A stretch of 54,494 bases of DNA, the filler included, from Sluysia triapertura (lineage: Eukaryota): assembly GCA_046118255.1 (NCBI GenBank). It is 4 parts of 4 records of this genome, joined end to end, with 100 filler letters (N's around TTAATTAATTAA, not from the genome) between each part and the next. Parts side by side here need not be neighbours in the genome. Positions count along the whole stretch, not along the records: positions 16,447 to 30,025 come from JBJNIA010031603.1; 3 more parts are not named here. One strand, 5' to 3'. Of this stretch, positions 25,469-26,749 are shown piece after piece. The notes beneath the pieces were generated by a model, which was not told the DNA's origin, did no database searches, and saw nothing but the letters and a program-made list of their open reading frames with translations. A program made the translations under genes and the position numbers. Every line of letters begins with the position of its first letter. Position 1 is the first letter of the stretch.

Positions 25469-26749
25469 CTACAAGTTCTAGATAAGTCTGTATTTTTTCG
25501 TATATTATTGGTAATTCATTTGTGCATTCAGTTGCTGGTCTTAATTGGACCTCTACTTTCTTACATTTATAGGTGTATAACACTTCTCCCATTAGTCTGC
25601 CAAAAACAACTTCTTCTAATGGTAACAATGGTGCAACCAAGTCAGGATTTGTGATCGCTACTGCTAGTTTTGAACGTAGTATTTCTTTGTTCAACTGTCA
25701 ATCCCGAGCGACCGTAATTTGATAAATTTTTTCTAAGGACATTAATCCAAGGTGATAGTAGAAGTCTATCTTATTATTAAAATAACTGTTTAATTTTATA
25801 TTTTTTGAATCTACTCCTTTTTTAGCTTGTAATATTATTTTCTCAGATAGGTAGATATCTTGATAATTAGTTTCAATGATTTCCTTTCATATCTTATTAT
25901 CGTTCCTTTTGATATAAAAATTAATCCATCTTCCTCTTTACTGGCCATCATAAGGGTAGGAGTCTCTATTTGATCCAATGTTTTACGTTGTACTTGCTCC
26001 TTTTTGTTTATTTCTTCAATTGGTAGATCATCATTGTTCTGGTAGACAAATCCGGATACTAAATTAAGTTTTATCTGTTTCAAGAATATTAAAGGACACT
26101 GGAACTTATCTAATTCGTATATTAAAGTAGATTCACCTGTATCACAACTTGTCTGATCCATTCTACAAAATGATCTAGACATCATTGTGCCTTTTTCGAT
26201 ATCAAAGCTTTCATTAAAAGATTTTAAGCTTACTACAAAAGTTTCTTGAGCTACAACGTTGTGATATATTTTCCCTTCGTATTCTATAGATCCCTGTTCA
26301 CATGTTCCATCTGTTAATACGTTTCCAGCAGTCCTGATGTTGTAGATAATTTTTTCGTTGTTTCTAACTCTTAACTTATCTCCTTTGACCAATCCTATAT
26401 AACCAGTTTCAAAAGCATCTCTACAATTATTCGGCAAAATTTTAAATGGCTTTAATACATGTGGTAATTCTATTATCGAAGAATGGCTATGGTGACCACA
26501 ATACCATATCGCCACTGATCTTTTTACCATACATTCTCTAACCAGTGCTGTTATTAAATTTCCTTCTTGATATACACTAAAGACTTTGGTTTCTTTTATC
26601 TGAATTATACTTGGTCTTGATTCCGGGCAGTCTTCTGTATCCAATAATGAAAATTTTCTGCCAACCTGTGGTTGATTACAATCAAAAGCTTTTATTGCTC
26701 CAGATTTATTTATACCGAACATAGCCAACAGTATTATCACGAAGAGCAT
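25469..26749 (-). pseudogene. env: Envelope glycoprotein, chuvirus-like (class III fusion type), C-terminally truncated
   Basis: Signal peptide MLFVIILLAMFGINKSGA, then IKAFDC..FSLLD..DC, ECMV..WYCGHHSHSS, GTCEQG...NVVAQ, NSYFNNK and GEVLYTYKCKKVEV.LR...CTNELPI: the cysteine pattern of chuvirus-type glycoproteins. Frameshift at about 25885 and a TGA at about 25698 in a Cys position; no TM anchor. Confidence 0.8.

Follow-up and report, generated by a model that had tools for sequence, protein, structure and literature searches.

The window analysed here, a stretch of 54,494 nucleotides (filler included) from Sluysia triapertura (GCA_046118255.1), very probably contains a decayed Ty3/Gypsy element, likely of the Burro/GYPSM1 kind, in which gag and pol are separated by what is left of a chuvirus-type class III glycoprotein gene (env), an env likely inherited within the lineage.

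Anatomy of the element and its surroundings

Read along the minus strand from the gap at 30026, the succession of ORFs and domains gives the order gag-env-pol, with env between gag and pol. A likely 5′ LTR remnant (29883..30025), upstream of the primer-binding-site-like motif and gag and with high family depth, runs into this gap, and neither paired LTRs (a second copy or 3′ match) nor a target-site duplication could be shown within the window. The primer-binding-site-like motif (29865..29882), read from the sequence, is presumably of the tRNA-Lys type. It is followed by gag (28503..29816), which carries one CCHC knuckle (zf-CCHC, E 6e-5) and aligns with the gag part of the env-bearing relatives P0128 and P0129, and by two accessory segments. 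The first of them (27874..28458) is acidic and likely helical, has a stop at its end, is in frame with the next ORF and gave a sub-cutoff Med26 match alone (E 0.002) in the Pfam scan. The second (27109..27873) holds a family-conserved domain, its residues 3-98 scoring 12.0 bits against a profile of four relatives when the best of 400 shuffles reached 7.9. Placed like the ubiquitin-like domain of Burro, this segment contains a GRP motif that we take to be AT-hook-like and likely also holds the first helices of a Bcl-2-like domain; it returned no informative Pfam or PDB match and no ubiquitin match, the PDB search with 27112-27873 giving low-complexity chance matches. The BH1-BH2 half of the Bcl-2-like domain (26861..27124), which a frameshift separates from its likely start, is located directly before env.

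The env region, also on the minus strand, begins with a signal-peptide-like hydrophobic segment (26690..26749), recognised by hydropathy and present at the same position in relatives. It continues with an N-terminal piece, likely domains I-II (25835..26689), and a second piece in another frame (25464..25886) with an internal stop near 25700, and ends at a junction with the protease (25460..25475) marked by an 8-nt tandem repeat. The next part (24259..25467) comprises the frameshifted protease remnant with its DTG motif, a spacer and the N-terminal part of RT. The spacer is conserved and sits at the dUTPase-like position of Burro; no Pfam dUTPase match was obtained in the window ORFs. A lesion in RT (24265..24300) precedes the RT thumb, RNase H and integrase, all of Gypsy type by Pfam (22164..24328), which share 45-52% identity with clade members and whose integrase bears frameshifts and stops. 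Two ORFs lie behind the integrase. One of them (21027..22277), found in the same position in P0124 and P0271, comprises a second protease-like domain (gag-asp_proteas, E 3e-5, with ESG replacing DTG), a hydrophobic segment and a putative ectodomain. The other (20255..21049), near whose 3′ end the repeat-family depth stops, contains a pair of hydrophobic segments, and its proline-rich tail bears a PPxY motif.

The stretch was present in one public sequencing run, and no RNA run was among those listed. The accessory parts are members of a repeat family that is both large and diverged, since 26,585 contig records of this run, most of them less than 95% alike, aligned along the element and covered all its parts from about 20100 to 30020. 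At several positions where the window copy is broken, other family copies among the run contigs read differently, in keeping with decay specific to this copy. Unique contigs of the same run, including the one at 18771-20303, matched the flanks exactly.

The genome is AT-rich, which would agree with a planarian host, in our view a fairly probable one. Gaps at 16347-16446, 30026-30125 and 42400-42499 are filler joins that share one short artificial linker, flanked in every case by N runs. A separate high-depth repeat lies between two unique contigs at about 18400-18850. The host exon at 19003-19455 (+) encodes a PAP2 phosphatase (Pfam), and the element, which is possibly intronic, ends about 800 nt past it; another host exon, at 14572-14934 (-), belongs to a PP2A B56 subunit (Pfam) and resembled a range of animals about equally, at 56-64%. 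Elsewhere in the window we observed a slightly GC-richer run of same-strand ORFs at 36530-38786 (-), perhaps part of a different mobile element, with a RING-like finger in one of them (E 0.001); a DNA-binding remnant of a Tc5/pogo-type transposase at 12578-12940 (-) (E 6e-4); an open frame of 590 codons at 30943-32715 (+) that includes a 36-nt tandem repeat and drew no informative Pfam match; and a 349-codon open frame without a Pfam match at 47128-48177 (+).

The env remnant and the state of the copy

By sequence profile and predicted structure, 25464-26749 (-) is what remains of a class III glycoprotein of the chuvirus type, as an earlier note made from the sequence alone had proposed. The signal peptide reported there corresponds to a hydrophobic, signal-peptide-like segment that begins at 26749 (-), and all six of its cysteine motifs were found on the minus strand. 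Four of them start in ORF 25835-27124 (-), namely AFDC (26689), SLLDxxxC (26650), CGHHSH (26500) and GTC (26308), while a second frame, 25464-25886 (-), contains KCKKVEV (25568) and CTNELP (25526). The ORF matched the Pfam family Monjiviricetes_fusion (PF24664) with an E-value of 1.2e-27 (96.6 bits, profile positions 3-207 of 653), and the second piece, with its stop read as X, with an E-value of 4.9e-19 (68.2 bits, positions 275-411), both above the 27-bit cutoff of PF24664; the second piece was 22-60% identical to relatives. The first env ORF was modelled with AlphaFold from a 98-row alignment (mean pLDDT 79) and the model was compared with known structures using Foldseek. Class III fusogens headed the results. 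Among viral models, the glycoproteins of chu-like virus and Tacheng tick virus 4 came first (E 1e-16), and the PDB matches were GP64, herpesvirus gB and the G proteins of thogotovirus and vesiculovirus, a rhabdovirus-type G (E about 1e-4, TM-scores 0.15-0.26). TM-scores were low overall (0.15-0.40) because the env model is a fragment. When the env family profile was compared with the PDB by sequence, herpesvirus gB ranked first (E 0.001). Alignment, model and Foldseek together point to conserved cysteines and a class III fold.

The extent that had been proposed for env fits this remnant well, but the frameshift, the stop, the missing anchor, the position upstream of pol and the Bcl-2-like domain that immediately precedes env had gone unrecorded. 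The gene is split by the frameshift and the stop and breaks off near position 411 of the 653-position profile, without a membrane anchor, where it runs straight into the DTG motif of the protease at the tandem repeat. For the junction, we compared the env matches: of the 150 listed, 59 covered the last env piece, and in 42 the sequence continued for more than 200 residues beyond the junction. A hydrophobic anchor was located 116-142 residues past this point in 37 of the 42 long-enough relatives, and a protease motif was found past it in nine relatives, at 255-331 residues in eight and at 498 in one. Since relatives carry the anchor and the spacing that are missing at the junction, the window env lacks stalk and anchor, and by this comparison about 255-330 codons, including both, are deleted from it. 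The tandem repeat suggests a deletion driven by microhomology. The RT is similarly damaged. Only 35 nt separate its two anchor motifs, compared with a distance of 34 codons for nine of the 11 relatives, making this part about 67 nt shorter, and the YxDD motif was absent from the window RT in any frame. The window therefore holds neither a complete fusogen with a C-terminal membrane anchor nor an intact RT with YxDD and open frames, which marks env as a remnant and the element as a decayed copy. With no env anchor and no RT YxDD motif, the copy is very likely dead, and it is likely unable to make a working envelope.

Carrier class and descent of env

The pol has the order PR-RT-RH-IN with an RNase H and integrase of Gypsy type (PF17917, PF17919, PF17921 and rve), and a GPY-containing integrase tail. 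With the single CCHC knuckle of gag, these matches bear out the Gypsy-type pol described earlier. A HMMER search with env matched 234 proteins, and our statements on relatives rest on the best 150 of these 234; a word-indexed search of the env piece against longer proteins scored none of 1580 candidates. Pfam scans were run on 24 of the 150 listed env relatives, picked by length or rank. Five of them combined env with RT/RNase H on a single chain, invariably in the order env, PR, RT-RH-IN, and a motif check over all 150 recovered the same five. In others of the scanned relatives, env was linked to gag or proteases. Two of the five, P0122 and P0124, found through env, ranked 6th and 7th of 270 in pol similarity. 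The cluster member P0271 unites env, several proteases, ankyrin, RT, RNase H and integrase in a chain of 4844 aa.

Some features of the relatives deserve mention in their own right. Several aspartyl protease domains per chain were present in P0123-P0126, P0146 and P0271, with up to 7 Pfam stretches in P0271. P0122 and P0002 are labelled as bacterial MAG proteins (Flavobacteriaceae and Turicibacter), and are likely from animal retrotransposon contigs binned into MAGs. The env-side/pol-side pairs P0121/P0004 and P0125/P0009 likely each derive from the same element, because they share contig sizes (20084 and 21743).

The pol tree (FastTree) included the window and 107 of the 270 proteins, those aligning over more than 400 residues. 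In this tree, built without a BEL/Pao reference, the window grouped with Gypsy elements, its named neighbours being of the Ty3/412/17.6 type. It fell in a 9-row group with the env-bearing P0122 and P0124 (support 98), nested in an 11-row group adding P0141 and P0142 (91). The env tree, a quick unrooted IQ-TREE built from 94 of 151 env sequences together with the window, with no labelled Pao env among them, placed the window in a 24-row group with 11 of the 13 polyprotein-borne envs (96), and a branch with a support of 99 lay between the full set of 13 and both named chuvirus rows. Both trees agree in leaving P0141 and P0142 outside the window-P0122-P0124 group. As judged from these sequence comparisons, the env is a member of a divergent clade whose Gypsy polyproteins join env and pol, and it was likely inherited within the Gypsy lineage rather than captured here.

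The alternatives concern where the glycoprotein came from and how far the assembly can be trusted. An abrupt env-protease junction with an 8-nt tandem repeat could also arise if a separate BEL/Pao element, or an endogenous chuvirus sequence (EVE), had been inserted into a Gypsy copy. This is extremely improbable given that env is followed by PR without interruption in P0122, P0124, P0141, P0142, P0207 and P0271, that a Bcl-2-like domain precedes env in relatives as well, and that Pfam found no gag, protease or RNase H family of the BEL/Pao type in the window ORFs or the 24 scanned env relatives. This last result, the env-pol single chains of Gypsy relatives and the concordant trees sustain the earlier placement outside BEL/Pao. 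The independent env acquisition that the same note had advanced is not supported as a new or local event, since the window env groups with Gypsy polyprotein envs and the gag-env-pol combination in Gypsy elements is already published. A fresh capture of the glycoprotein from a chuvirus, made by the Gypsy lineage within the present host, would agree with chuvirus glycoproteins being the best named structural matches and with the lack of a close relative in the word-indexed search, the nearest env among the matches listed being 28-35% identical. However, Gypsy polyprotein envs matched with E-values of 1e-52 to 1e-36, against 1e-15 at best for a named chuvirus G, and both the 99-support split from the chuvirus rows and the shared outside position of P0141 and P0142 speak against it. 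We consider such a fresh local capture largely refuted, with very little probability left to it.

Another concern is that the env truncation and some of the frameshifts are assembly errors and that the true copy is more complete. Gaps lie near in the scaffold, the family has many diverged copies, and the junction is spanned by no listed contig; the joint listing covered 15 of 385 contig joints, none at the env-protease junction, so the contigs do not address it. Against this stand the many independent lesions (stops, frameshifts, the 67-nt RT deletion and a protease-like motif without its aspartate), the exact match of the unique flanks to the run, and the decayed Burro fragments reported from Dugesia japonica in the available part of PMC6431247. 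An assembly artefact is accordingly very improbable, and a genuinely decayed Gypsy copy with an inherited env remains our preferred reading.

Accessory domains and relation to published elements

The homology of segment 26861-27124 to the Bcl-2 family is probable from sequence comparison. On its own, the window segment matched Pfam Bcl-2 with an E-value of 0.003, below the cutoff, and Bcl-2 chains of the PDB with an E-value of 0.13. We then aligned it with seven relatives, picked by eye from the matches covering the region. The resulting family profile detected Bcl-xL in the PDB (E 8e-5), with the BH1-BH2 helical core, and all eight aligned rows matched Pfam Bcl-2 at E-values up to 1 (best 2e-5). 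The segment was helical in the AlphaFold model and retained the BH2-like WxxxxGGW, while the BH1 NWGR motif was not retained. The ESM Atlas returned unrelated matches alone for this part (0.75-0.76), and no Bcl-2 structure was among the Foldseek matches listed for the model of the first env ORF.

More than 150 residues behind the integrase core, a hydrophobic segment was present in 9 of 11 clade members compared with 0 of 85 other Gypsy pols, these being the 85 of 114 comparison pols that had the anchor motif and were counted; it likely marks a second membrane protein. At this place, relatives have an extra protease in intact form and a membrane protein that is putatively fibronectin-III-like. 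The P0007 ectodomain resembled fibronectin type III (Atlas features 0.90, its ten best named matches belonging to one clan), a likeness that we regard as no more than a lead. The ectodomains encoded behind the integrase in the window matched each other weakly (E 0.027) and scored 1.7 bits against a profile of the units of 11 relatives, for which shuffles reached 7.5; a single-sequence model gave a poor, uninformative fold (pLDDT 45). A PPxY motif was found in the tail of 1 of 11 relatives. These features suggest, as a rather doubtful possibility, that Burro-like Gypsy elements may be two-glycoprotein viruses, with a gB-type fusogen and a post-integrase type I membrane protein as putative attachment or trigger partner, and in some a PPxY budding tail. 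The proposed partner would be comparable to herpesvirus gD and gH/gL, which serve gB. A literature search in a partial library retrieved no paper evidently describing such a module; published figures or repositories may already annotate the region. The available text of PMC13524379 leaves the question by what means retrotransposons with a gB get into cells when they lack the partner glycoproteins on which herpesviruses depend, and a post-integrase membrane protein could bear on it.

Beside the domain order, homologies and lesions observed here, we infer from sequence a polyprotein mechanism for intact members. One long polyprotein would be made, of which gag, the likely ubiquitin-like domain and the Bcl-2-like domain would be kept in the cytosol, while an internal signal peptide would send env into the ER and its membrane anchor would bring the chain back to the cytosol, where protease, RT, RNase H and integrase would follow. 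The parts would then be separated by signal peptidase together with the element's own proteases. The putative trimeric env may then fuse particle and cell membranes, so that the element could pass between cells, and the Bcl-2-like domain is predicted to restrain apoptosis, delaying the death of the producing cell. As found, the window element carries little weight, being one more dead copy of a published env-carrying Gypsy kind. The Burro-like layout itself (Bcl-2-like domain, in-frame env and extra proteases) spans a wider clade of metagenome proteins.

Glycoproteins of Chuviridae/Jingchuvirales (PF24664) and their BEL/Pao-borne forms belong to the same protein family and class III fold as the window env. 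They differ in context: in chuviruses they are free-standing genes of about 650 aa, the two named rows lying beyond the 99-support branch, and the BEL/Pao carriers, known from mosquitoes (Dezordi 2020, as cited in the available part of PMC13524379), have a pol unlike the Gypsy pol of the window. With one such mosquito glycoprotein as bait, 114 gypsy elements were found, and gB-type env was described in Gypsy elements across animals, with an ancient acquisition argued and a GAG-ENV-POL order in Nematoda, Bryozoa and Platyhelminthes (Chary and Hayashi, PMC13524379, available part). The window element resembles the HSV/gB-type 'ancient errantiviruses' Platyhelminthes_C1a of that study in its Ty3/Gypsy pol and its gB-type env between gag and pol, and its env, when compared by eye, agrees with six Schmidtea envs of this group in its motifs and in how its cysteines are spaced. 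As far as the available text goes, that set consists exclusively of intact elements, whereas the window copy is broken; the words Bcl and accessory are absent from the main text.

The closest layout is that of the planarian Burro/GYPSM1, described in the available part of PMC6431247 as gag, Ubi2/SUMO-like, BCL2, env, PR, dUTPase-like, RT, RH and IN in one frame, with an env matching arthropod and fish mononegavirus glycoproteins and with decayed copies in Dugesia japonica (Arkhipova and Yushenova 2019). The window element shares the order gag, ubiquitin-like position, BCL2-like, env, PR, RT, RH and IN, with env between the BCL2-like domain and the protease as in Burro, and it also has many copies. 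Unlike Burro, a single polyprotein of about 5000 aa and more than 30 kb with 2-3 knuckles, it spans about 10 kb, is broken, has one CCHC knuckle and gave no MATH, BIR or ankyrin match; it also carries the post-integrase protease-like domain and membrane ORFs, which go unmentioned in the available text on Burro (PMC6431247). Because size and knuckle number differ, in a comparison made by description rather than by sequence, the element is likely Burro-like rather than Burro itself, its kinship resting on the layout and on the by-eye env comparison. The layouts in the available parts of PMC6431247 and PMC13524379 make the pairing of Gypsy and chuvirus-type env already known, and the window element is a decayed copy of this published env-carrying Gypsy kind.
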